Part shown: piece after piece, positions 1,490-40,231 of the stretch | Numbering within the stretch: the stretch's first letter is position 1 | Layout: every line of letters begins with the position of its first letter | Translations under genes and position numbers: made by a program | Origin: a virus | Lineage: Duplodnaviria; Caudoviricetes | Strand: one strand, 5' to 3' | Virus record (IMG/VR): IMGVR_UViG_3300025114_000001 | Coordinates: 1-60,475 of that record | Length of the DNA stretch: 60,475 bases | The notes under the pieces: generated by a model | Seen by the model: only the letters and a program-made list of their open reading frames with translations | Database searches by the model: none | Told to the model about the DNA's origin: nothing

Positions 1490-4342
1490 ATGTCTGCAAA
1501 GAAATTTAAGTTTGTCTCACCCGGTGTCTTTCTCAGTGAGATTGATAATAGCCAGTTACCAAAGCAACCAGGGGGCGTCGGCCCAGTTGTTATTGGTCGT
1601 ACCCGCCGCGGCCCGGCACTAAAGCCAGTAAAAGTTAGCTCTTTTCAAGAATTTGTTGAGATCTTCGGAGAACCTGTCCCCGGTAATGAAGGGGAAGATC
1701 CATGGAGAGATGGAAATGGTCTATTGGCTCCTGCTTATGCCCCGTATGCGGCTCAAGCTTATTTGAAAGCAGATATAAATTCCCCAGTAACTGTTATTCG
1801 CTTGCTTGGTGTCCAGGGCGATGATGCTTCAGAGTCTGGCGGCGAACCCGGCTGGGCCCTAGATTCATCCGGTGCTGCCATCGGCCTGTTCGTCGCAGCC
1901 AGTGCATCTGCAATGACGGCCTCCTTGGCTGGTGTTGTTTACACCACCGAAGATGCTTTCGAAGTTGGCGTCAGAGGTACTGGATATACATCGAACACGA
2001 CAATCACACAAAATGCGACAGCGTCAGGCGCCGCAACCACAGTTGAACCAGTTAAAATTACAAATGATTCTTTCAAGCTGAGGCTCAAATCGAGCCTAGG
2101 CGAGCTAATAAAAACGGTCTCTTTTCAAGAAGGCGCAAAATATATAAGAGATGAGTTAAACACAAACCCTGTTGCAACCAACAGTTATATTATGACCCCT
2201 CCTTCCTCTTCCTTGGCTTCTAAATATTGGCTTGGAGAAACTTTTGAAGAGGAGTACGAAAGAGTAAAGAGAAAGTCAACAGCCGGCTCTCTTATCGTCT
2301 TTCCTGTGCGATTAGTAAACCTGATGGCCGATTTTAAAAGTAGTTCGCACGGCCTAGCAGCCGCATCATCAGGCTGGGCTATACCACAATATACTGATGA
2401 CTCGGCAAGTTTTAATCCTGCAGCTCTTGGAAAGCTCTTTAGATTCCACGCTATCCAAGAAGGGGAGCAGGGAATGGACTTGAATATAAAAATTGAGAAC
2501 ATAAAGATTGCAGATCCCGGTAACCCGTCACCTTATGGTCGCTTCGACGTTGTTATAGAACAGAAAAGAGGTGGCCGCATCTATCCGGTCGACAGTTACG
2601 AAAATCTTAATCTAAACCCCAACTCAAATGATTTTATTGCTCGAAGAATTGGAGATCAGTATTTTCAGTGGGATGGAATACAAAAGAGAAATAAAGTTTA
2701 TGGAAGTTACCCGAATCAATCCAATTATGTTCGAGTTGAAATGGACTCAGGGGTTGGGGAAAATGGTCCTTCAAATCCGAAGTTGGTGCCTTTTGGTTTT
2801 CTCGGCCCTATTGTCCCAGTTAGTTCCACCGGCTCCACGGCGGCAGGCATCTCCACCCATTCTACCTCCTGGGCAACTGGTTCAATCTCCGGTAGTGCTC
2901 TGACCGGCTTAAAACTGGCTTGGCCAGAATCACCGCATGTTATCACTGGCTCAACGGGAGTTGATCTTGCGGCAAAGTATATTATGGGAAGTACACAATA
3001 TAATAAAGACTCAGGGGGCACCCCCAACTTCTCATCTGCCAACAAAGGTATGAAAGACTATCTTCGAAGATATGGAAGTTTCGCTGGACTAGTTTCCTCC
3101 CAAGTATCTGGCCTCGCCACCGCCACCTCTACAAAACATTCTTACGTCTTTTCGTTGGACGACGTAATCATCACAGGTGCGACCACAGCAAATATAGGGG
3201 ATCTTTCAGAATATGCCCCCAGTGCTGTGGTATTTACAAGTGGCTCACATGCCGCCGGTACCGCATACACCTCCCTTTCCAGTGGCTCGGCCGCATCCTT
3301 GACTAGTCTTGTCAGTAGTTTCTCTATGCCTCTGGCTGCCGGCAGCGATGGAGTTGATATTACAGAAGCAGATCCATTTAATATGAGAGTCATCGGTACT
3401 GATTCTACTACTAAAAACAGCTATGCCCACGCTTCAGTCGACCGAGCCATTGAACTGATTCGCGACCCCGAAGCCTTAGAAATGAATCTTGCTGTTATGC
3501 CTGGTATTACGAAAGAGGCTCTGACAACTAAACTGATTCAGGTTTGTGAGGCCAGAGCCGACGCGCTCGCAATAATTGACCTTCCAAACATATATGTACC
3601 GCCAGCAGAAGCTATCTGCACCAACTTTCAAGACAGAGTTGATGGCACCAATCCGGAAAAGAGTGCTAAGGCACTCACAGCACGCCAGCTAAATTCAAGC
3701 TATGGTGCAGCTTACTACCCATGGGTAAAGGTTAGAGACACTGTTAATGATCGAGATGTCTGGGCTCCACCTTCTGTTATTGCCCTCGGCGTCATGGGAT
3801 ATACCGAACAGCGCGATGAAGTTTGGTTCGCCCCTGCTGGATTCAACCGCGGTGGCCTTAACGAAGGAAACGCAGGCCTCCCTGTTTTGCAGGCTTCAGA
3901 GCAATTGCTCTCTTCACAGCGGGATACTCTGTATGAAGCAAATATTAACCCAATCGCATCCTTTGTCTCAGAGGGTCTGGTTGTATTTGGTCAAAAGACG
4001 CTTCAGCTAACGCCTTCGGCTTTGGACAGGATTAACGTTCGTCGATTGCTAATCTTCGTGAAGAAAGAAGTATCTAGGATTGCAAATGGCTTGTTGTTCG
4101 ACCAGAATGTTCCAGCAACTTGGAACCGGTTCACTGGTCAAGTGGTGCCACTTCTTGAGAGCGTAAAAACTCGCCTAGGATTGTCTGACTTCAAGGTCGT
4201 ATTAGATAAGACGACTACAACACCTGACCTTATTGATAGAAATATCATGTATGCGAAGATTTTCTTGAAGCCAGCTCGCGCAATTGAGTTCATTGCAGTT
4301 GATTTTGTTATAACGAGAACCGGAGCTTCTTTTGACGACTAA
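1490..4342 (+). CDS. Contractile tail sheath protein (gp18-like)
   Basis: N-terminal FVSPGVFLSEID; C-terminal YYPWV, WFAPAGFNRG, LYEANINPI, FGQKTLQ, RINVRRL and KPARAIEFI sheath motifs. Confidence 0.95.
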   Translation: MSAKKFKFVSPGVFLSEIDNSQLPKQPGGVGPVVIGRTRRGPALKPVKVSSFQEFVEIFGEPVPGNEGEDPWRDGNGLLAPAYAPYAAQAYLKADINSPVTVIRLLGVQGDDASESGGEPGWALDSSGAAIGLFVAASASAMTASLAGVVYTTEDAFEVGVRGTGYTSNTTITQNATASGAATTVEPVKITNDSFKLRLKSSLGELIKTVSFQEGAKYIRDELNTNPVATNSYIMTPPSSSLASKYWLGETFEEEYERVKRKSTAGSLIVFPVRLVNLMADFKSSSHGLAAASSGWAIPQYTDDSASFNPAALGKLFRFHAIQEGEQGMDLNIKIENIKIADPGNPSPYGRFDVVIEQKRGGRIYPVDSYENLNLNPNSNDFIARRIGDQYFQWDGIQKRNKVYGSYPNQSNYVRVEMDSGVGENGPSNPKLVPFGFLGPIVPVSSTGSTAAGISTHSTSWATGSISGSALTGLKLAWPESPHVITGSTGVDLAAKYIMGSTQYNKDSGGTPNFSSANKGMKDYLRRYGSFAGLVSSQVSGLATATSTKHSYVFSLDDVIITGATTANIGDLSEYAPSAVVFTSGSHAAGTAYTSLSSGSAASLTSLVSSFSMPLAAGSDGVDITEADPFNMRVIGTDSTTKNSYAHASVDRAIELIRDPEALEMNLAVMPGITKEALTTKLIQVCEARADALAIIDLPNIYVPPAEAICTNFQDRVDGTNPEKSAKALTARQLNSSYGAAYYPWVKVRDTVNDRDVWAPPSVIALGVMGYTEQRDEVWFAPAGFNRGGLNEGNAGLPVLQASEQLLSSQRDTLYEANINPIASFVSEGLVVFGQKTLQLTPSALDRINVRRLLIFVKKEVSRIANGLLFDQNVPATWNRFTGQVVPLLESVKTRLGLSDFKVVLDKTTTTPDLIDRNIMYAKIFLKPARAIEFIAVDFVITRTGASFDD

Positions 4343-4395
4343 TAATCGTTAAAAACCGGTGCAGAATAATATATACTAATAGGAGATATAAAATA

Positions 4396-4959
4396 ATGGC
4401 ATTTTGGAGTGAAAAAACAGTCGAGCCAAAGAGGAAGTTTAGATGGCTTCTTTATTGGTCTGGAGTACCACAATTCGTGGTAAAGAGCGTAAAGAAGCCA
4501 GGATATGAAGTAGGTGTTACACCTCATCAGTTTTTGAATTATGAATTCAATTATCCAGGTCGAGTAAAGTGGAAGCCAATTGACATTGTAATTGTTGATC
4601 CAGTAAACCCCGACTCAACTAAAAGCCTTTATAAGATTTTAGAGAACTCTGGGTACGTAATCCCTAGTAACTACCAGCAGGCCGCTGCAGCCACTATTTC
4701 CAAGCAGGGAATGGTAGACGCTCTGGGCACAGAGATAAAGCTCACACAGCTTGATGCTGACGGTGTAAACGCCATTGAGACTTGGGTTATAAAGAATCCA
4801 TTGATAACTTCGGCAGAGTTTGACCAACTGGATTATAGCGCAGATGAGTTGTTGAATATTTCTGTTAGCATAACTTACGATTATGCGACACTAGAAGGCC
4901 TTGGCCAAGGACCGCACAATAACACTGGCGGAGACCTTTGGACCTTCAACAACAAATAG
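4396..4959 (+). CDS. Tail tube protein (gp19-like)
   Basis: Follows the sheath; EPKRKFRW, YPGRVKWKPI, DPVNPD and LDY...ITYDYA motifs. Confidence 0.9.
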   Translation: MAFWSEKTVEPKRKFRWLLYWSGVPQFVVKSVKKPGYEVGVTPHQFLNYEFNYPGRVKWKPIDIVIVDPVNPDSTKSLYKILENSGYVIPSNYQQAAAATISKQGMVDALGTEIKLTQLDADGVNAIETWVIKNPLITSAEFDQLDYSADELLNISVSITYDYATLEGLGQGPHNNTGGDLWTFNNK

Positions 4960-4982
4960 AAAAGTAAACAAAAAGAGGAAAA

Positions 4983-5876
4983 ATGTCAAGAAATTCTAGA
5001 AGAACACGGATACCTAAGTCTGTTGAACCCCCCGCGGCAAAACCCCAACCAAATGTCATCCCCCCTGCACAAAAAGAAAAGCCCAACCCATTCGGGCTTT
5101 CTTTTGCTGTGGAAACAGAGATAGTTCATCTCCCTAGCGGAGGAAACTTTTATGATGAGGGCAGCGCTTTAAACGGTATAGAAACCGTTGAGATAAAGGC
5201 CATGACGGCCAAAGAAGAGGATATTTTAATAAATGAAAGCTTTATTGAACAGGGTTCTATCTTTGACCGCCTAATAGATTCACTAATGATCACTCCCGGC
5301 ATCCAAGCCCAGGAGTTGTTAGACTGCGATAAAGTCGCTATACTAGTCTCAGCAAGAAAAACAGGCTATGGTAATACTCTGGAGGTAAGCCATGATTGTG
5401 AGGACTGCGGCAAAACAACTGATGTAAGCTTAGATTTGTCAAAAATGCTTGAAAACGCAAAGGAAGGCAAGTTTGAGATAGAGGATACTGAAGAGTGGCA
5501 GTATGATAGGACAAGCAAAACTTTCATGGTTAACCTCCCAGTAACTGAGATACAGGCAAGAATTAAACTTCTGACGCCTTCAGACGTGAAATATTTACAG
5601 CAAGCAAAGAAGCAAAAAGAAAAATTAAGTTTACCATATAACGAAACAATTGAATTTGTTAGGAAAGTGTTGGTCTCGGCAAACGACGTCGTTGATCCCG
5701 CGCTTCTTACTTCTTTACTAGACGTACTCCCTGCAGCCGATGCAAGGAGAATTAAATACGTACATAATGTAAACATCCCAGCCTTTGACACGAAGCAGGA
5801 GATCTCTTGCTCAAACTGTTCTGCAAGAGCGGAAAAGGAGGCGCCCTTCTCTGTGGGCTGGTTTTGGTCTATCTAA
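4983..5876 (+). CDS. Tail/baseplate hub assembly chaperone (gp26-like)
   Basis: LPSGG..Y, MTAKEEDIL, ARKTGYG, two CxxC pairs and C-terminal WFW; sits between tube and tape measure genes. Confidence 0.75.
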   Translation: MSRNSRRTRIPKSVEPPAAKPQPNVIPPAQKEKPNPFGLSFAVETEIVHLPSGGNFYDEGSALNGIETVEIKAMTAKEEDILINESFIEQGSIFDRLIDSLMITPGIQAQELLDCDKVAILVSARKTGYGNTLEVSHDCEDCGKTTDVSLDLSKMLENAKEGKFEIEDTEEWQYDRTSKTFMVNLPVTEIQARIKLLTPSDVKYLQQAKKQKEKLSLPYNETIEFVRKVLVSANDVVDPALLTSLLDVLPAADARRIKYVHNVNIPAFDTKQEISCSNCSARAEKEAPFSVGWFWSI

Positions 5877-21027: not shown

Positions 21028-22221
21028 TTGACATCAGCACAGTTAAGACAGATAGCCTCCTCTGGCTACTCTCATTTGAACACAAACCAAAGAATTCAGG
21101 CAGCATGCGCCGAGCATACGAACTTTATAAAATCAAACTTTGTCTTGGGTGGGGACCTTCATATCCTTAAGACTAAGGACATAGTGTTTGACTATAAAGG
21201 AATGGCCCATCAACCTCGCCTAGGCAACCTGGATCCTACAACTGTAAGGAAATATAGCGCTCAAGCAAAAAACGGAGTAAATGGGGTTTTCGGGATCCGA
21301 AAGCCAATTACTGTCTATTGGAGCACAGTTCAGCAAAGTTTCATTGGTATCAAGGGTCATCATAGGTATTCGGCCGCAAGGGAAATAGGATATAATTATA
21401 TCATAGCTCACATTGATGATATCTTTCCAAGCCTATCGAAGCAAGAACAAATTGATTGTCTGATGAGCGATAATGCATTTGCTGATAATGGCATGCAAAG
21501 TTGTACTCGCAGTATTGCAGAGGCATTAAAAGCGACCCTACAGGACGAAACATTCATGCGCGCTGAGAGAAAGATGCAACAGCAATTGCAGGAAAAACTT
21601 AAATCTTGCAACGAAGAATCTAGAAGAAAAGAGATTGAAAAGAACATCAAGGAAATTAGTAAGAAAATTCGTGGACCACTTGATATTCTGGCCCAAAAGT
21701 GGAATCCATCGACGGCTAGTTCGTCTAATAAGACATTAGTTACAAGAGCTTTAAATAACTACCAGGCGAAGCACTTGGTCCAGGTTTTTAACCATACGAC
21801 TAAGCAAAGAAAAGCATATATTTCACATGCTGTCAACACGTTGGGAAATGATGATCTTTATTTTGATTGGGGCCAAGCGGTAACAAACAATAACGTGCAA
21901 ATTAACTTGCCAACTGCCGAATTTCTCGCTAAGGTAAGAGAGTATAAGAAAGCGAATAATAGCGGAAAGTTGCCTTCTTCTTTTACTTTTTTTACTTGTA
22001 TTCCAGGTGGAGTAAAAGATTATCAACACCTTTTTCAATTGCGCAGCCGTATAGAAGAGAGTATTATAGATAGAGTGGCAGATGTTTACCCATCCGTTCC
22101 TCGTCACTTTAAATTCTTAGGTCAGGTCCTTAATCAAAACTCTCCCTGTGCAGAAGACCCTAAGAAACTATATGATTCGTCCTATGTTACCAGCTATATT
22201 AAGCAGAGCAAAAAGAATTAA
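21028..22221 (+). CDS. ParB/Srx N-terminal domain protein
   Basis: HQPR...KPITV...GHHRYSAA...DN matches the ParB-like GxxR motif. Confidence 0.6.
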   Translation: MTSAQLRQIASSGYSHLNTNQRIQAACAEHTNFIKSNFVLGGDLHILKTKDIVFDYKGMAHQPRLGNLDPTTVRKYSAQAKNGVNGVFGIRKPITVYWSTVQQSFIGIKGHHRYSAAREIGYNYIIAHIDDIFPSLSKQEQIDCLMSDNAFADNGMQSCTRSIAEALKATLQDETFMRAERKMQQQLQEKLKSCNEESRRKEIEKNIKEISKKIRGPLDILAQKWNPSTASSSNKTLVTRALNNYQAKHLVQVFNHTTKQRKAYISHAVNTLGNDDLYFDWGQAVTNNNVQINLPTAEFLAKVREYKKANNSGKLPSSFTFFTCIPGGVKDYQHLFQLRSRIEESIIDRVADVYPSVPRHFKFLGQVLNQNSPCAEDPKKLYDSSYVTSYIKQSKKN

Positions 22222-22231
22222 AAAGATATTA

Positions 22232-22305
22232 GCCCAAGAGACCCTATAGGAATGGGTGCCTCACCCCCAGTGAGGAAGCTGCAGGTTCGACTCCTGCCTT
22301 GGGCT
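22232..22305 (+). tRNA. Non-canonical tRNA-Gly(CCC)-like RNA
   Basis: Cloverleaf: acceptor GCCCAAG/CTTGGGC, D stem ACCC/GGGT, anticodon stem CCTCA/TGAGG with loop CCCCCAG, T arm GCAGG-TTCGACT-CCTGC, discriminator U. CCA is not encoded. Atypical A8, U14 and C33. Confidence 0.8.
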
Positions 22306-22350
22306 CAACCCTTTCCCCCCTGCTTTCTCCTCATAGTGCGGAGATAGTAC

Positions 22351-22379
22351 TTGACAATCTCCCCAAAAAAGTGTAATAT
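22351..22379 (+). promoter_or_regulatory. Sigma70-type promoter
   Basis: TTGACA-17bp-TAATAT upstream of the Mom-like gene. Confidence 0.7.
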
Positions 22380-22414
22380 AAATATATAAACAATCATATT
22401 AATGAGGACTACAA

Positions 22415-23587
22415 ATGATTAGTGAAAAAAAACCAGATTACTCCGACCGTACAAAATATTGTAAAAAGGTTTCATATGAAATTAAAGAGATCGATAAAAT
22501 AAAAGCAATAGAGTTAGTTCAAGAAAATCATTACTCGCCAGTGATGCCGACACTAACAAAGCATTTTCTGGGTGTCCACAAGGATCAAGATCTGGTTGGA
22601 GTAATCACACTCGGCTGGGGGACGAAGCCGATGCATACTATCCAAAAAGTTATAAACAAAGAGATGACGTCTAAAGACTATTATGAGATAGGCAAGATGT
22701 GCATGCTAGACGAAGAGTTAGGTAATTCAGAGACGCAGATGCTCTCGCAAGTTGTTCGCTGGCTTAAGAGCAATCATCCGGACGTTAAGTACTTATACAC
22801 TCTCGCAGACGGCATCATGGGAAAATGCGGAAGCGTTTATCAGTCAGCAAACTTTTATTATGGAGGTGAGTATTGGACTGACAGCTATATGTCAGCCAAG
22901 GGAGAAAAAGTACACCCAAGAACAACGCGGCAGCTTTGCTTTGATAACTGGGAGTGGCATTACAATTCTAAATCACCAGGCCATATTCCAGAGTTCAAGA
23001 AAACTCATGATGTAAAAGCTGCAGCAAAACGCCAGAGTTATACAGAAGCTCTCGAGTCCCTGATACACAATATTCCACCAGAGTTAAGCGAAGAAAAGGC
23101 CTCTCAAATCCGCCAATTTTCAGCTGACTTTTATGAGTCCCGAAGCAAATATATTCGGGCATACGACGAATTCGTCAGTTCAAAGGCCGCATTCAGTCAA
23201 CGACCAGTAGAGAAGTCTTTCTTGCCAAGTGTTCCAAAGGGCCTATCAGAATACCTCTCTAATCCGAAGAAAGATTATATTAAGAAACAGCAAGTATTTT
23301 GGCTAACCCCTGAGTACATGAAACATATCGGTCTTCGCAAGATTAAGGGTAAAATGTTTAGATATATTTATCCTCTAAGCAAGAGTGCAAAAAAGCTCCT
23401 GAAAAAGAGTGAACAGATTGAGTGGAAGATCGGTTCCGGCGTATACCCAAAGGAAAATAACGGTGTATTGCAATGGAAAGAGATGATGGGAAGAAACGAT
23501 TATCAAATTCTAGAAGAGATGCCAGCATGGGACTTGCAAGTCACTGAACACAACGAGAAAAATGTAAATGCACATAAAAGCAAATAA
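22415..23587 (+). CDS. Mom-family (GNAT-fold) DNA adenine modification enzyme
   Basis: NHYS, LVGVITLG, YEIGKMC, NSETQMLS and YTLADG..GKCGSVYQSANFYYGG, later KMFRYIYPL: the HYS / AD-G-G-YQA-NF-Y-G pattern of Mu Mom-like proteins. Confidence 0.75.
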   Translation: MISEKKPDYSDRTKYCKKVSYEIKEIDKIKAIELVQENHYSPVMPTLTKHFLGVHKDQDLVGVITLGWGTKPMHTIQKVINKEMTSKDYYEIGKMCMLDEELGNSETQMLSQVVRWLKSNHPDVKYLYTLADGIMGKCGSVYQSANFYYGGEYWTDSYMSAKGEKVHPRTTRQLCFDNWEWHYNSKSPGHIPEFKKTHDVKAAAKRQSYTEALESLIHNIPPELSEEKASQIRQFSADFYESRSKYIRAYDEFVSSKAAFSQRPVEKSFLPSVPKGLSEYLSNPKKDYIKKQQVFWLTPEYMKHIGLRKIKGKMFRYIYPLSKSAKKLLKKSEQIEWKIGSGVYPKENNGVLQWKEMMGRNDYQILEEMPAWDLQVTEHNEKNVNAHKSK

Positions 23588-23591
23588 ATGC

Positions 23592-23620
23592 TTGACTTTT
23601 AGCAAAAAATATATTATTAT
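23592..23620 (+). promoter_or_regulatory. Sigma70-type promoter
   Basis: TTGACT-17bp-TATTAT. Confidence 0.7.
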
Positions 23621-23653
23621 AATTAAAGAAACAATCAACAAAAGGAAAAACTC

Positions 23654-23926
23654 ATGAGTTTCAACGAAGACAATAAAATTTTAACAGAAGAGGAGCACCT
23701 CTCTAACTACGTCAAAGAGTTCGCAGCAATTGAAGACGCGATGGAACCTTATAAGGAACAACGTCGAGATCTAAGAGAATCATATGATGAAAACGGTTGG
23801 CTCTCAAAGGAAGAGATGCGCCTTGCAGTGAAGGCATATAGGCTGGTTAAATCAGACACTGATATGGAACAGCTGACAGAGTATTTCAACAGGCTGAAAA
23901 GAACAGTGAGGAGTATCAATGTCTAG
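23654..23926 (+). CDS. Small dsDNA-binding protein (GapR / T4 DsbA-like)
   Basis: 90-aa helical protein, IEDAMEPYKEQRRDLRESY...MRLAVKAYR. Confidence 0.55.
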   Translation: MSFNEDNKILTEEEHLSNYVKEFAAIEDAMEPYKEQRRDLRESYDENGWLSKEEMRLAVKAYRLVKSDTDMEQLTEYFNRLKRTVRSINV

Positions 23927-24242
23927 AATTCCACCTGTGCTCAAGCCGGTCAATAGGCACTTAACAATTGTCCCACATGTTCAGAAAAATGAAACATCAA
24001 CAGGAGTACTTCTTCCAGATGGTTTTGAACCAGAGGAAGATAAATATATTACAGCAACGGTCATAGACATCGCTAGCGACTGCTCCCCCGCGTTGAGAGA
24101 GCTGCGAGGCTCTAACAGTCGAAACAAGGTTATTGTCATTGACCGGAGCATGATGGAAGAAATAAAAGTAAGAGACAAATCATACTTTACCATTTTAGAG
24201 AACTATGTTATCGGGATGCTAAGAGGGCTTAATGAAAATTGA
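23919..24242 (+). CDS. groES: GroES-like co-chaperonin
   Basis: LKPVNRHL..., TSTGVLLP mobile loop and C-terminal ILENYVIG. Confidence 0.75.
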   Translation: MSRIPPVLKPVNRHLTIVPHVQKNETSTGVLLPDGFEPEEDKYITATVIDIASDCSPALRELRGSNSRNKVIVIDRSMMEEIKVRDKSYFTILENYVIGMLRGLNEN

Positions 24243-24937: not shown

Positions 24938-27127
24938 GTGAAAAAGTTATTATTATTTTCAGTTTTAACATTGGCCTGTTCCGCGGAAACAATATCATTT
25001 ACGGAACCCCCACGAGATGGCGCTATTTCGGTACCACAAGATTCACAGGCACCCGACTATCATGTTATTGATTCTTCCGTTCGGCCGCCAATTATTGATG
25101 CATCACCCCCGGTGCTTCCATGCCAAAATTTGGATGTTTCGGATCATGAAAAGTACTGCTTGTGTCTCCCTCAATGTTGTGAAACACAAGAGTGGTATTG
25201 TCCTCCTACCCCAGACCAGACGATTCAATCTATGCAGGTTGTCCTAGAGGTGTGCGATGAAGAGGAGGTATCTTGTGTTTTCGGTGAGGATGAAGACTGC
25301 CCACCACCACAAATAATCCATAGGAGTCCGTGCCAGGTTACTCATGAATGTCCCCCCGGTTCGACGAGAGATTTTTTACGCTGGTTTGAGTGCCAACTGG
25401 AAGACGGCACATTCGGCCGTCAACGCGTCTTATGTGATAAGGGGGTGGTTGTCCATGGTCCTTGTACTTCTTGTGACCCAGAAGTCTGTGATGGCATCGA
25501 CAACGATTGTGATGACCGTATCGATGAAGACCCAATCCTCTGTGAGGACGAATGTGGCCCCGGAGTCGGCCTTTGCCAGAATGGGGTGTTGGTGGAATGT
25601 GTTAACAGGGATCCAGAAGAAGAAATTTGTAATTTTATCGATGATGACTGCGACGGAGAGATAGATGAAGATCAACGGAATGACTGCGATGGTTGTGGGG
25701 AACTCCCTTTGGAAGTTTGCGACAGCGTCGATAACGATTGTGACGGAAGGACTGATGAGTCTCTTTTACGAGAGTGCGAGACACAATGTAACCGCGGCCT
25801 TGAAACGTGTATCAACGGTCGATGGGGTTCCTGTACCGCACGTCAGCCAGTTCAAGAAATATGCGACGGCTTAGACAATGACTGTGATGGCATCCCAGAT
25901 GAAGGCATTAACTGTCTATGCACAATAGACCAAGTTGGGGTACTCATCCCCTGCGCTGAGCCGCCTTTATTCTGTGGGATGGGCTTTAAAACTTGTCAAT
26001 GCCGCGACGTGGACTGTCAAATAATCGAGCTAACTCCCTGTCTGGCACTCTGTGTTTATCTCCCTGAGCGTGAGGGGGAAGAATGTCATCCTGGCATTGG
26101 TCGTCCCGTGGAGCCTGAAATATGTAATAATTTTGACGAAGACTGCGACAACCTGGTTGATGAACAGCTCACTCAAGCATGCTATACGGGTCCCCCTGGC
26201 ACTATAAATGTGGGGATTTGCCTACCTGGAGAGCAGTCTTGCGTCGAGGGACAGTGGGGTGGCCCCAACGGAGACGGCCGTTGGACTGAAAATATTTGCA
26301 GCGGCGAAATTATACCAGCCGAAGAAGTCTGCGATGGTGCTGATAACGATTGCGACGGCGAGAACGATTACGGAGAGGACTTGCACCCAACCGATATCCT
26401 GTTAATTATTGACACTAGCGGTTCAATGAGTGGTGAAATTAGAGCAGTTACTGCAGCTCTATCCCGTTTCGGCCAGCATTTCGCCGCAGAAGATGCAATC
26501 CATTGGGGCCTCATCATCGGCCCAACACGAGCACCCAATCCGGACTTTCCAGGCTCAGACCATGAGGTTCTAACACGCGTGTCGGATATCGCACCATTTC
26601 AGCAGTTCTTTGACGCATTTGTAAATTTGGACCCTTTGACTTTTGATGGGGGTTTCGAGATGCTCATGGACGCAGTAATGTTATCTTTGAGAAACCTTAG
26701 CCCACTGCATGTTGACCTCGCCGCACGCAATTGGATCAGGGGAGTAGTATCGGTCCCTGAAAAGGATAATTTTATTATTAACTGGCGTCGGAATACGGAC
26801 CGAATCATTATCGTCTTTACTGACGAGAATGAGCAGTCTTATTTCAACCCGCCGTTTCATCGTAACGACCTTACTAACGCGCTCGCTGCGGCACCAAACA
26901 CAAAATTATACACTTTCGCTTTGGCCTTCTATTTCTGGGATGAGTTCGCGATTGCCACTGGCGGTAGAAATTTTGACCTTACTTCTCGTGCTGACCAAAT
27001 GTACGATAATTTAATGTCGATTATAGATGAAATATGTCTGCCACAACCGGGAGAACAAGCTGGTTTTAGGAGGATTCCGCAGAGTGTAGTGAAATACCAG
27101 TTTGCTTCTGAATTGATGTGTTTTTAG
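24938..27127 (+). CDS. Cys-rich lipoprotein with MopE-like repeats and a C-terminal vWA domain
   Basis: Signal peptide ending LTLAC; six E-x-C-D/N-x-x-D-N/D/E-D-C-D-x-x-x-D-E/Y-type repeats; MIDAS motif DTSGSM and VFTDENEQS. Confidence 0.85.
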   Translation: MKKLLLFSVLTLACSAETISFTEPPRDGAISVPQDSQAPDYHVIDSSVRPPIIDASPPVLPCQNLDVSDHEKYCLCLPQCCETQEWYCPPTPDQTIQSMQVVLEVCDEEEVSCVFGEDEDCPPPQIIHRSPCQVTHECPPGSTRDFLRWFECQLEDGTFGRQRVLCDKGVVVHGPCTSCDPEVCDGIDNDCDDRIDEDPILCEDECGPGVGLCQNGVLVECVNRDPEEEICNFIDDDCDGEIDEDQRNDCDGCGELPLEVCDSVDNDCDGRTDESLLRECETQCNRGLETCINGRWGSCTARQPVQEICDGLDNDCDGIPDEGINCLCTIDQVGVLIPCAEPPLFCGMGFKTCQCRDVDCQIIELTPCLALCVYLPEREGEECHPGIGRPVEPEICNNFDEDCDNLVDEQLTQACYTGPPGTINVGICLPGEQSCVEGQWGGPNGDGRWTENICSGEIIPAEEVCDGADNDCDGENDYGEDLHPTDILLIIDTSGSMSGEIRAVTAALSRFGQHFAAEDAIHWGLIIGPTRAPNPDFPGSDHEVLTRVSDIAPFQQFFDAFVNLDPLTFDGGFEMLMDAVMLSLRNLSPLHVDLAARNWIRGVVSVPEKDNFIINWRRNTDRIIIVFTDENEQSYFNPPFHRNDLTNALAAAPNTKLYTFALAFYFWDEFAIATGGRNFDLTSRADQMYDNLMSIIDEICLPQPGEQAGFRRIPQSVVKYQFASELMCF

Positions 27128-33179: not shown

Positions 33180-33416
33180 ATGGGATTAGCTAGAAAAATC
33201 AAAAGAAAACAGCAAGGTATTTTTATGAAAGAATTCAAGAAGAAAATGAAACATTTCAAGAAAATGGTAAAGTGCTCCAACTGTGGAAAAGTGCCTACTG
33301 AAGATGAAAACATTGACGATTGGAAAATCAACAAGAGTAGTGAAAACCTTGATTTGCTGTGTTTGGATTGTTTCCATCCCGCTGACGAGAAAATAGAGAT
33401 ACAAAATGAAGATTAA
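33180..33416 (+). CDS. Small zinc-finger protein
   Basis: CSNC...CLDC with a basic N-terminus. Confidence 0.6.
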   Translation: MGLARKIKRKQQGIFMKEFKKKMKHFKKMVKCSNCGKVPTEDENIDDWKINKSSENLDLLCLDCFHPADEKIEIQNED

Positions 33417-34440
33417 ACCATCTCACTCTTTCGATGATGTTCTTCTTGTTCCATCAAAAAGTTCAATCGAATCCAGACAAGAGATTGATCTTACAACTTC
33501 TTTAGGAGATTCTAGTTTCCGGCTGCCGATTATTTCCAGTCCCATGGATACCGTTACTGAGCTTGAGATGATGCTAACTCTTTTGCGCCATGGCGGCCTA
33601 GGTGTAATTCATCGCTACAACAGCATTTCTCAGCAGGCCAATATGTGTGCTATAGCCCGGGACAGACTGGAAGAGTCGAGCGACAACGCAACTAATATTG
33701 CTGCGGCCCTGGGAGTTTCATCGGATATACAGGACCGGTCCACATCTTTGTATGACGCTGGAGCGCGCATATTTTGTATCGACATCGCCCATGGACATCA
33801 TATATATATGGAACGGGCCCTCAAAACTCTACGTGATATCTTTGGTAAAAGCATAACCATAATAGCTGGCAACATAGCTACTCCAGACGCATATCGCGAT
33901 TTATCAGATTGGGGAGCTGATGCAGTACGCATCGGCATCGGAGGCGGCTCCATCTGTTCCACTAGGATTCAGACTGGCCATGGCATGCCTACTTTCCAAT
34001 CAGTCTTAGACTGCAGCTTTATGCCCGGCGCCTCAATAATCGCAGACGGTGGTATAAAAAACTCTGGAGACATTGTTAAAGCACTTGCTGCCGGCGCAGA
34101 TATGGTTATGCTAGGTTCTCTTTTGGCAGGGACAGATGAAAGCCCTGGAGAGGTCTTCTCCACCGCCACCGGAAGTAAATATAAGGTTTATCGTGGCATG
34201 GCATCAGTCGAAGCTCAGGTTGATTGGCGCGGCCATGCAAGGTCACTGGAGGGTGTTTCCACGACGATCCCATATAAGGGTAGCGTGAAAAATATCCTAA
34301 ATAATTTAGAGCAGAACATTAAGTCTGGTTTATCTTATACCGGTGCTAGAACGATTGCGGAGTTTCAAGCAAAGGCGCGCTTTATACAACAGACACATGC
34401 AGGTCAGCTAGAGAGTAGCACTCATATCCTAAGAAAATGA
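33406..34440 (+). CDS. guaB: IMP dehydrogenase / GMP reductase family protein (no CBS domains)
   Basis: [35 protein letters not shown] (catalytic Cys), [14 protein letters not shown] and YRGMAS. Confidence 0.9.
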
Positions 34441-35661: not shown

Positions 35662-35928
35662 GTGCTTGTTATGGCCAAAAACGTAGAAGGAGTTTATTGG
35701 GAAACGGATCAAAACGAATACAACGTTCAGATACATCACAAGTATGATGAGACGGCCACCATCAGCAGAATTTTTCATGATTGGGAACTCACTGCAACAG
35801 GGGCTTACACAAAAGAAGACCAAAAGATTTCAATTTTTAGAAAAAAGTTCACCCATCGCATGGAACTTAAAATAGCAGTGCGAGATATAAAATATAAAAA
35901 TAACATTACCTTGAAAGAGATTAAATGA
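35662..35928 (+). CDS. Hypothetical protein
   Basis: 88-aa ORF with GAGGAG RBS. Confidence 0.6.
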   Translation: MLVMAKNVEGVYWETDQNEYNVQIHHKYDETATISRIFHDWELTATGAYTKEDQKISIFRKKFTHRMELKIAVRDIKYKNNITLKEIK

Positions 35929-36650
35929 CTACTGAAACAAAAAAGAATAAGAAAACCAAGAAAACCAAGAAGAATAAAAAGAAGGACGTCACAGCTGTAA
36001 GCCCTCCAATGCAGATGATGGAAACTCCAGATGGAAAGCAGATTGTTATAGTTAACAACCTGCAGCCACCAGTCGACCCTGTCCCTGAACTAAGGACAAT
36101 AAACCTATATGGTGACATTACAGAGCAGAGAGGCTCAGAAGTTGTCGCAGCGCTTTTGTATCTTGAAAATTCAGCCCTGACTCAGATGCTTAAAGACCCT
36201 TCTGACCCCATGTCAAAGATCGTCACCGTCGCCAAATCAATAAATATGTATGTCTCGACTCATGGAGGAATTGCAAGCGATATGTTTTCAATTCTGGATG
36301 TAATGGATATGGTTAAGAAAAAGACTTGTGATATTTATACCTATGGTGTTGGAAAAGTGATGTCAGCGGGCGTCCCCATTCTTGCCGCAGGAACTCCAGG
36401 CAAGCGAAAGGTAGGTCGTAACTGCCGAATCATGCTCCACAGCGTCCTTGCTGGTGCCGGCGGCACGATCTCTTCTATGGAAAACGAACTAGAAGAGATC
36501 AAGTGGGTCCAAGATAGCTACATAGAAACCCTTGCTGGCTATACAAAAATGACTAAGGCCAAAATTAAAAAGATGCTCAAAACTCAAAGAGATGTTTATA
36601 TCTCAGCCGAAGAGGCAATAAAATTGGGAATTGCAGACGAAATAATCTAA
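35925..36650 (+). CDS. clpP: ClpP-family protease
   Basis: INLYGDI, INMYVSTHGG, GKVMSAG (Ser), IMLH (His), RDVYISAEEAIKLGIADEI. Confidence 0.9.
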   Translation: MTTETKKNKKTKKTKKNKKKDVTAVSPPMQMMETPDGKQIVIVNNLQPPVDPVPELRTINLYGDITEQRGSEVVAALLYLENSALTQMLKDPSDPMSKIVTVAKSINMYVSTHGGIASDMFSILDVMDMVKKKTCDIYTYGVGKVMSAGVPILAAGTPGKRKVGRNCRIMLHSVLAGAGGTISSMENELEEIKWVQDSYIETLAGYTKMTKAKIKKMLKTQRDVYISAEEAIKLGIADEII

Positions 36651-38662: not shown

Positions 38663-40231
38663 ATGACTACCAAATTAGAGAACGGCTCGGTCTTACGCAA
38701 CAAGATCCTTGAAGGCGTTAATGCCCTAGCTGACTACGTTGCCACAACCCTAGGCCCAAAAGGCCAAAACGTTCTAATCCAACAGAAAGGCAAAAGACCT
38801 TTTATTACAAAAGACGGTGTGACCGTTGCACAAAGTATGTCTTTTGAAGACCCGTTTGTCAATGCTGGAGCAGAAGTTGTAAAACAGGTTTCTGCTATGA
38901 CCAACGCCGAAGCTGGCGATGGTACAACTACAAGCACCATTCTGGCGCGAGAAATCCTGCGTCAAGCCCACAAACACATTGAGTCGGGTGTAAGCCCGAT
39001 TGAGATTAAAAGGGGCTTAGAGAGGTGTTCTACTGCCATATGCGAGGGCATAGCTGATTTAGCAAAACCAATATCATCCGTCGAAGACATCCGGCATATT
39101 GCAACCATTTCTGCAAATAACGATCCAATTATTGGTGACTTAATCGCAAATGCAGTCGACAAGATAGGAAAGAACGGTTCAATCTCTGTGGAAGATGCAA
39201 AATCGCATGAGACGACACTAGAACTTGTGGAGGGTTTCAAATTCCGTTCAGGTTATGCTGCCAGAGCATTTATCACTGATGAACGCCGCGGCCTGTGCAA
39301 GTATGATGATCCAATGTTTTTGATTACTGATAGTAAGATTGAGCAAGTTGGCGATATTCTTCCTTCTCTAGAGATTGCCGCACGAGAAGGTCGACCATTT
39401 GTAATCATTGCAGATGAAATTGAGGGGCAAGCCTTGGCCGCCCTCATCATGAATACAATCCGCGGCTCTATGAAGGTTGTAGCAATCAAGGGCCCATCCT
39501 ATGGGGAAGACCGCCGCGGAATCATGAGCGACTTGGCAACTGCTACAGGAGCAAAATTCTTCCAGCAATCCCTCGGCCATAAGGTGACAGAAGTATCTTT
39601 ATTAGATTTTGGCCAAGCAAAAGCAGTTGAAATCAGCAAGGCCACCACGACAATCGTCGACGGCGAAGGAGCATGCGACCTCGTGGAGACACGAATTGAC
39701 GAGATCAAGAATGAGATTAATGACACTGATGACCTACATGCCGCCCAACGTTTGCAAGATAGGATAACTAGACTTTCGTCTGGAGTAGCCATCATTAGGG
39801 TCGGAGCAAGTTCAGAAGTCGAGTTAATAGAGAAGAAGCACCGCATAGAAGACGCCCTAGAGGCTGTAAACTCTGCTCAGGAGGAAGGAATCGTATTGGG
39901 AGGTGGAATGACCCTCGCCAAGATTTCAGACGCCTTAGACATCCAATTTGAGAATGACGAACAATCTGTTGCTTTATCAATTATAAAGAAATCCTTACAA
40001 GCACCTTTCGATATTATGGCTGCCAATGCGGGGCACAATCCAGAAGTGCTTCGACTCACACTCGGAGAGTGTGGCGAAATGGAAGGATACAACTTTTTGA
40101 CCTCAAAAAAAGAAAATCTTTTTGTATCTGGCATCATCGACCCAGCGAAGGTCACGCGCTGCGCACTTAAGAATGCTGTCTCTGTGGCTGGCACTCTTTT
40201 GCTGACAAATCATGGTGTTGTTTATGTTTAG
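38663..40231 (+). CDS. groEL: GroEL chaperonin
   Basis: TLGPKG, ITKDGVTVA, AGDGTTT, IATISAN, EKKHRIEDAL, GGG and GIIDPAKVTR. Confidence 0.96.
   Translation: MTTKLENGSVLRNKILEGVNALADYVATTLGPKGQNVLIQQKGKRPFITKDGVTVAQSMSFEDPFVNAGAEVVKQVSAMTNAEAGDGTTTSTILAREILRQAHKHIESGVSPIEIKRGLERCSTAICEGIADLAKPISSVEDIRHIATISANNDPIIGDLIANAVDKIGKNGSISVEDAKSHETTLELVEGFKFRSGYAARAFITDERRGLCKYDDPMFLITDSKIEQVGDILPSLEIAAREGRPFVIIADEIEGQALAALIMNTIRGSMKVVAIKGPSYGEDRRGIMSDLATATGAKFFQQSLGHKVTEVSLLDFGQAKAVEISKATTTIVDGEGACDLVETRIDEIKNEINDTDDLHAAQRLQDRITRLSSGVAIIRVGASSEVELIEKKHRIEDALEAVNSAQEEGIVLGGGMTLAKISDALDIQFENDEQSVALSIIKKSLQAPFDIMAANAGHNPEVLRLTLGECGEMEGYNFLTSKKENLFVSGIIDPAKVTRCALKNAVSVAGTLLLTNHGVVYV

Follow-up and report, generated by a model that had tools for sequence, protein, structure and literature searches.

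A tRNA-Gly-like gene beside a Mom-family gene in uncultured marine phages and its putative role as a glycine carrier

The locus and its genes

The window, that is, the whole stretch of 60,475 bases analysed here (IMG/VR record IMGVR_UViG_3300025114_000001), is a fragment of a large myovirus, in which genes for tail sheath, T4-type baseplate, gp32-like SSB, UvsX/RecA, DnaB, class II RNR, ThyX and PolIII alpha were found, as well as those for GroEL/GroES, ClpP and thymidine kinase. Since the PolIII alpha shares less than 30% identity with that of any cultured phage, no host could be inferred. No match to cultured phages was obtained by blastn with window positions 22100-23700, and neither a GlyRS nor a CCA-adding enzyme was recognised by Pfam in the window. 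The gene of interest is a tRNA-Gly-like gene, whose neighbours are all on the + strand, and the features of the locus are as follows.

22232..22305 (+): tRNA-Gly(CCC)-like gene, positions 1-73, based on ARAGORN, Rfam RF00005, the cloverleaf fold and covariation in 19 relatives
22306..22350 (+): spacer after the tRNA, based on an eight-locus alignment and the sequence; the relatives have a short T-run only
22351..22379 (+): candidate sigma-70-like promoter of the Mom-like gene (TTGACA, 17 nt, TAATAT), based on a consensus scan (10/12) and conservation, putative in function
22415..23587 (+): Mom-family GNAT of 390 aa, the proposed user of the charged tRNA, based on PF25680, phrog_1384, phmmer, AF2 and Foldseek

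The sole tRNA called by ARAGORN in the window is a tRNA-Gly with anticodon ccc at 22232-22306 (+), and the score of 22232-22305 against the general Rfam model RF00005 is 45.4 bits (gathering score 29, E 1.7e-6), which places it in the tRNA family. A preliminary description, made from the letters alone, had pointed out intact stems together with the loss of several positions typical of translation, and its account of the structure agrees with the sequence and the Rfam alignment. The four stems of 7, 4, 5 and 5 pairs contain standard pairs only; G18 G19, the TTCGA T loop and A15 with U48 are kept; and the acceptor end has G1-C72, C2-G71, C3-G70 and U73, accompanied by C35 C36 in the anticodon. 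The swapped core (A8, U14 and U21) is likewise present, and so is the T-stem pair A51-U63, within the T stem G49-C65/C50-G64/A51-U63. The anticodon loop reads C32 C33 C34 C35 C36 A37 G38, where C33 stands in place of the U33 that an elongator combines with a 7-nt loop, and C32 could pair with G38. In addition, A10-U25 and C3-G70 are unusual for tRNAGly.

Folding by minimum free energy gives the cloverleaf, in which C32-G38 is closed (-33.3 kcal/mol, z -3.16), and none of 200 shuffled sequences folds as well. Judged by this fold and by the compensatory changes kept in 19 distinct relatives, the structure is more than a chance resemblance. Among the family members listed, the Rfam scores range from 45.4 to 66.3 bits, the window being the lowest and the members with canonical loops lying around 66 bits, and the copy of locus L001 is absent from the Rfam matches at the gathering threshold. 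The absence of an encoded CCA had also been remarked upon. The trailer is indeed CAA and CCA is not encoded, but this is ordinary, as most other tRNAs of these phages are without CCA; it was rejected as a special signal, and the family members of L103 and L087 do encode CCA.

Directly after the tRNA and the T-run, all of the seven aligned relatives share a TTTACA/TTGACA box, 17 nt and TGTATAAT. The spacer of the window contains about 34 extra nt (22320-22353), absent from the seven relatives, and this insertion carries one arm of an inverted repeat, GGAGAT...ATCTCC, which reaches into the candidate promoter and overlaps its -35 box.

Some other genes of the window deserve mention. The ORF at 21028-22221 (+), 397 aa, lies between RNR and the tRNA, belongs to no Pfam family and has a weak ParB-like PHROG match (E 7e-4). 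Its slot is variable, as certain relatives have the ORF and others have a different gene or nothing in its place, and it was rejected as a part of the module because only six linked loci besides the window have it (L001, L005, L094, L104, L107, partly others). A protein of 729 aa is encoded at 24938-27127 (+), and relatives conserve it at the same place after ThyX; it shows four putative metal-binding repeats of the MopE type (PF11617, E 1.3e-16) in addition to a weak VWA match. The window further encodes a protein of the GMP reductase/IMPDH family (33406-34440, E 3e-104), a ClpP-like protease (35925-36650), GroEL (38663-40231) and GroES (23919-24242).

The Mom-family gene, which is missing from the preliminary description, starts 109 nt after the tRNA on the same strand. 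Its product matches PF25680 (E 5.1e-49), phrog_1384 (E 9e-32) and, by phmmer, Mu Mom 8bv8 (E 1.3e-13). The AF2 model of the protein (pLDDT 88.5) has 8bv8 as its top Foldseek match (E 5.8e-12, TM 0.65-0.75 normalised to target), so that the HMM match and the GNAT fold with a Mom-type insertion, which together define the Mom family, are both found. In the model, a clade-specific insertion of about residues 176-290 is added to the GNAT core at the place of the essential HTH-like insertion of Mu Mom, and is much larger than the latter; it comprises two long helices, 192-218 and 226-256, and gave no informative Foldseek match. Residues H58, Y59, D149 and Y159 of Mu Mom are kept, whereas R111, S124 and R151 are replaced by K, T and I, respectively, and the K and I are common to all 59 marine homologues. 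It is reported that R111, S124, D149 and R151, plus H58, Y59 and Y159, are essential in Mu Mom, and that R111K is strongly impaired (PMC13219725). Therefore, as two residues essential in Mu are K and I here, the activity and chemistry of the enzyme may differ.

In one relative, L087, the Mom protein (3707-5134, -) carries an N-terminal PD-(D/E)XK nuclease domain (PF20472, E 2.5e-5, 24.5 bits, cut-off 23.7) and so belongs with the modification-restriction fusions reported from jumbo phages (PMC7824862).

Conserved and variable positions in the tRNA family

The family contains 19 distinct tRNA sequences, all from uncultured marine phages. In their alignment, standard pairs occupy 98.9% of cells and both sides have changed in 10 of 24 pairs, a level that none of 500 shuffles reaches and that collapses in slid registers; it should be noted that the metagenome set was retrieved by a pattern from the tRNA 3' half, so that the conservation of this half is partly by construction. 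The double-changed pairs are all five of the anticodon stem, two of the D stem, 4-69, 8-14 and 32-38. Covariation in related phages, which the preliminary description had suggested looking for, is thus found, and there is no decay: all stems are kept and none is randomly broken across the 19 sequences. In a diverged natural variant, seen on one contig at a depth of 3.5, the tRNA is identical, whereas the 33 nt that precede it differ at 12 positions. The sequencing runs found for the window include no RNA run, which speaks neither for nor against expression.

What is kept and what varies differ in kind. The GlyRS identity elements that had been noted in the window tRNA, G1-C72, C2-G71, U73, C35 and C36, are invariant in 19/19, and so is A37. 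Pair 15-48 is A-U throughout (19/19); pair 8-14 is U-A in 11 members, A-U in six and A/A in two; and pair 32-38 is pairable in every case (C-G in 10, U-G in eight, U-A in one). Position 33 is U in five members, G in seven and C in one, the other six having 8-nt loops, and position 34 is U in 11, C in five and A in three. This free variation at 33 and 34, the positions that serve decoding only, supports the loss of translation-type invariants claimed earlier for the single tRNA. The other tRNAs of the same phage loci served as a control, and U33 is found in 15/15 of them. For example, a complete relative of 185.6 kb (CheckV 100%) encodes Lys UUU, Arg UCU, Ile UAU and Thr UGU tRNAs with canonical loops, located 24-37 kb from its Mom-linked tRNA, whose loop is U32 G33 A34 CC A G. 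Other anticodon registers for the G33 loops (GCC, GUC, GAC) were rejected by eye, only C35 C36 A37 G38 being constant.

Could the gene act merely as a tRNA-shaped element of the transcript? An RNase P/Z site or a transcript end that sets mom expression would need no aminoacylation, and the position of the gene between the upstream operon and a conserved promoter, the T-run after it and the hairpins just upstream in several relatives are in keeping with such a function. However, an acceptor/T minihelix would suffice for it, whereas the D arm, 8-14, 15-48, G18 G19 and C35 C36 A37 are all conserved or covarying, and we consider a processing or termination element very unlikely. Even less credible, to the point of being extremely improbable, is that programmed recoding employs the 8-nt-loop members as quadruplet (+1 frameshift) decoders. 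ARAGORN does report 4-base anticodons (atcc, aacc) in six distinct members, but the loop of the window has 7 nt, and close relatives alternate between 7- and 8-nt loops and among G33, C33 and U33, which relaxed constraint fits better than conserved recoding.

Some members retain ordinary loops. The nearest relatives of the window tRNA, in L089/L100, have U33 and differ from it at positions 33 and 59 only; L105 has the fully canonical loop UUUCCAA (65.9 bits); and L101/L102 have two copies in tandem, of which the one has U33 and the other G33. The family appears to be derived from a decoding phage tRNA-Gly(UCC), of which canonical copies survive in some relatives. The exact tRNA 3' half has no match in 185,579 species genomes. 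Among the matches listed for the acceptor stem GCCCAAG/CTTGGGC with U73 in cellular genomes, 80/80 are tRNA-Thr and none is tRNA-Gly, and this looser pattern gave no host tRNAGly source among them. The 80 tRNA-Thr listed (GGU 73, CGU 5, UGU 2; loci L110-L189) are mostly from Acidobacteriota and Chloroflexota. From this similarity, the acceptor stem of the phage family may have been inherited from a tRNA of the Thr type or have come to resemble one by convergence.

Two tRNA types can be distinguished, A8-U14-U21 with the T stem GCAGG and U8-A14-A21 with the T stem GUAGG. They are discordant with the Mom tree, as the Mom proteins of L002 and L003 are near-identical and their tRNA types different. 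The copy at L106:211-285 (-) is a hybrid of both types, which suggests recombination within the tRNA.

Linkage to one clade of Mom-like proteins

The linkage was examined from both sides. Starting from the protein, 329 Mom relatives were found in IMG/VR and the best 80 loci were examined with ARAGORN. In the six closest loci (L001-L006), a tRNA-Gly-like gene precedes the Mom gene by 60-110 nt on the same strand, whereas the other 74 of the best 80 of 329 have no tRNA-Gly of the family within about 4 kb, and a covariance model of the family detected nothing further in L007-L080. Among the same best 80, L043 has a tRNA-Ile. At L007:6850-6924 (+), an unrelated tRNA-Gly(ACC) lies 3 kb downstream of a Mom gene of the tRNA-less clade; it has U33, an encoded CCA and 71.3 bits, and is otherwise canonical.

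Starting from the tRNA, a Mom homologue was found directly downstream in 5/5 viral matches and 21/22 metagenome matches, the 22nd contig ending about 210 nt after the tRNA; the two collections share some contigs. Most linked loci are syntenic, so that many of these co-occurrences are inherited from one lineage and only about two contexts are independent. Every testable tRNA copy adjoins, directly upstream, a gene of one Mom clade, and two anticodon-arm patterns revealed no copies beyond the known contigs. A Mom tree was built with 59 rows from 102 loci, after incomplete ORFs, proteins shorter than 240 aa and duplicates had been dropped. Its 20 tRNA-linked rows, each a distinct and complete Mom protein, all fall on the same side of a branch with 100/100 support and a length of 0.96, with no other row among them. 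The insertion between window residues 175 and 291 amounts to 34-117 aa in the tRNA-linked clade alone and 9-20 aa elsewhere, and the position of Mu S124 is T in 18/20 tRNA-linked rows and S in 38/39 tRNA-less rows.

The usual gene order, seen at most linked loci, is DnaB-RNR-(variable)-tRNA-mom-orf-GroES-ThyX. A second context is provided by L101/L102, L103 and L105, where the tRNA-mom pair lies inside tRNA clusters with different neighbours. As for cultured phages with Mom homologues, no tRNA-Gly is annotated within 4-6 kb in Melnitz, Edwardsiella ET-ABTNL-9, Synechococcus DSL-LC03, Aeromonas PX29 and Pantoea Phynn. The linkage is therefore not a property of the Mom family at large.

This linkage bears on another explanation, proposed in part by the preliminary description as a decoy for anticodon nucleases: the gene could be a decoy, or a nuclease-resistant replacement, directed against a host defence that cleaves or acetylates tRNAGly. 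Phage tRNAs countering tRNA-targeting defences are known, and an arms race could have produced an anticodon loop that varies while the shape of the tRNA is otherwise kept. Some GNAT toxins are also directed at Gly-tRNAGly (TacT, cited in PMC13219725). However, the strict adjacency to one Mom clade would be left unexplained, U33 would be expected in a replacement tRNA, and a decoy for anticodon nucleases need not hold U73, G1-C72 and C2-G71 invariant. As it accounts neither for the Mom linkage nor for the kept identity elements of the acceptor end, we regard a decoy or replacement as quite improbable.

Our literature searches returned no phage tRNA-Gly gene beside mom, and the main texts of PMC13219725 and of bioRxiv 10.1101/2023.03.24.534169, where searched, make no mention of a phage tRNA gene in this position; the supplements of PMC13219725, which list mined homologues, might bear on this point.

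A possible private carrier of glycine

Could the tRNA be charged, and would it enter translation? G3-C70 is a contributing GlyRS element in E. coli, whereas C3-G70 is found in 19/19 members, and C3-G70 and A10-U25 might weaken GlyRS recognition. The reported GlyRS determinants of bacterial tRNAGly, namely G1-C72, C2-G71, U73, C35 and C36 (PMC7826273), are all present in the window tRNA. EF-Tu affinity was calculated by the additive T-stem model of Schrader and Uhlenbeck (Tables 1-4 of PMC3239215, with a reference of -10.1 kcal/mol back-calculated from Table 3). This model, which failed for four of the five single-copy outliers tested in the same paper, predicts -9.6 kcal/mol for the T stem G49-C65/C50-G64/A51-U63 (6/19 members including the window) and -9.0 kcal/mol for the T stem G-C/U-G/A-U (13/19). 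The class means given there for tRNAGly are -11.0 (CCC, sd 0.34), -11.0 (GCC) and -10.8 (UCC) kcal/mol, with an outlier threshold of 1.3. By this prediction, the window tRNA does not have the class-tuned T stem of elongators; the weak T stem also occurs in the canonical-loop members of the family.

Silva et al. (Nat Commun 2026; PMC13219725) showed that Gly-tRNAGly supplies the glycine which Mu Mom attaches to N6 of adenine in dsDNA. According to the same article, Mu Mom requires the terminal riboadenosine, accepts all three E. coli tRNAGly isoacceptors and refuses tRNAAla mischarged with glycine; as glycyl-tRNAAla is rejected, Mu Mom reads the tRNA body. Mu uses host tRNAGly and encodes no tRNA, whereas here a private tRNA-Gly-like gene is attached to the gene of a Mom-family enzyme. 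EF-Tu sequesters proteogenic Gly-tRNAGly and so inhibits FmhB (Rietmeyer et al., PMC7826273), which is the kind of problem that a private carrier would solve.

We propose that the tRNA is a phage-encoded, largely non-decoding glycyl carrier, i.e., a glycine-accepting tRNA mainly or only for the downstream Mom-like DNA-modifying enzyme, and we assign to this reading a probability of roughly 0.6. The transcript would be processed, with CCA added by a host enzyme, and host GlyRS would charge the tRNA via U73, G1-C72, C2-G71, C35 and C36. The weak T stem and the non-canonical anticodon loop would then keep it largely from EF-Tu and the ribosome, and so create a private pool of Gly-tRNA for the Mom-like enzyme, which would glycylate bases in the phage dsDNA as Mu Mom does. 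Such base glycylation would shield the genome from host nucleases without draining translation. Against a private carrier stand the 74 of the best 80 of 329 Mom loci without such a tRNA; since, in addition, Mu Mom uses all three host isoacceptors, the family does not depend on a private tRNA. The canonical U33 in 5/19 members, including L089/L100, also counts against it, and C33 of the window could have arisen recently and be tolerated, with the tRNA continuing to decode.

In that case, the gene would encode an ordinary tRNA-Gly, which decodes, adds to the host pool and stays beside mom through shared inheritance in one phage lineage only. The five members with U33 and a normal 7-nt loop, among them L105 with its canonical loop, are what this explanation predicts, one substitution separates C33 of the window from the U33 of L089/L100, the gene lies within a tRNA cluster in L101-L105, and the linked loci are mostly syntenic. 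Substitutions of U33 reduce decoding in vitro and do not abolish it. However, U33 is missing in 14/19 members, with 8-nt loops in six and A34 in three, whereas the other tRNAs of these phages are canonical in 15/15. Furthermore, GGG, the only codon read well by a CCC anticodon, is the rarest Gly codon of the window (132/1147, 11.5%), the T stem is predicted to be 1.4-2.0 kcal/mol weaker than the tRNAGly class means, and the tRNA-mom pair persists across two gene contexts. An ordinary decoding tRNA is consequently unlikely in our view.

The Mom-linked tRNA can be compared with the phage tRNAs that serve codon supply or counter-defence. It is likewise a tRNA gene of a large lytic phage, and its relatives carry Lys, Arg, Ile, Thr and other tRNAs. 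Those tRNAs, however, have canonical loops in 15/15 cases and anticodons for A/U-ending codons, whereas the Mom-linked tRNA is without U33, variable at position 34 and tied to one enzyme gene.

A parallel to the proposed carrier is the non-proteogenic tRNAGly of staphylococci, which has lost G18 G19, whereas both are kept in the phage tRNA. The staphylococcal tRNAs, donors for FmhB/FemA/FemB (PMC7826273, PMC3239215), resemble it in that the GlyRS determinants are kept and EF-Tu binding is weak (predicted -9.6 or -9.0 kcal/mol for the phage tRNA; -9.5 calculated and -9.6/-9.7 measured for the staphylococcal cell-wall tRNAGly, PMC3239215), and the phage tRNA, too, is proposed to feed a GNAT-fold aminoacyl-tRNA transferase and not the ribosome. 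On the other hand, the phage tRNA is virus-encoded, its proposed acceptor is DNA and not a peptidoglycan precursor, its sequence is unrelated, and the anticodon loop of its family is degenerate (no U33, 8-nt loops, A34). The staphylococcal lineage is reported to be restricted to staphylococci (PMC7826273), whereas the tRNA described here is phage-borne and marine, and its 3' half is absent from the 185,579 species genomes. By analogy, the phage tRNA would be one that works like the staphylococcal non-proteogenic tRNAGly, outside that lineage.

As to its evolution, we see about even odds that the tRNA has left translation altogether to serve as an aminoacyl cofactor only, having arisen from tRNA-Gly(UCC) by duplication, as is visible in L101/L102, and loss of U33, and having co-evolved with the Mom variant that bears the helical insertion.

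As far as our literature searches reach, a virus-borne tRNA that appears tied to a DNA-modifying aminoacyl transferase is not in print. If the tRNA has indeed left translation altogether, it would be without precedent, both as a non-translational tRNA encoded by a virus and as a tRNA dedicated to the modification of nucleic acids; the proof that Mom modifies DNA in a tRNA-dependent manner came only in 2023-2026 and is confined to host tRNA. Viruses could then split a tRNA from translation for counter-defence chemistry, in parallel with what staphylococci do for cell-wall synthesis. The series from canonical to degenerate loops would offer a natural set for asking what GlyRS, EF-Tu, the ribosome and a Mom-type enzyme need, and the enzyme-tRNA pair could become an orthogonal tool for site-directed DNA aminoacylation. 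When genomes are annotated, genes of this kind should be kept out of the count of codon-supply tRNAs.

A further RNA gene was observed in L103, where a full-length phage tmRNA (4384-4911, -; RF00023, 107.5 bits) adjoins the tRNA cluster that contains the tRNA-Gly/mom pair.
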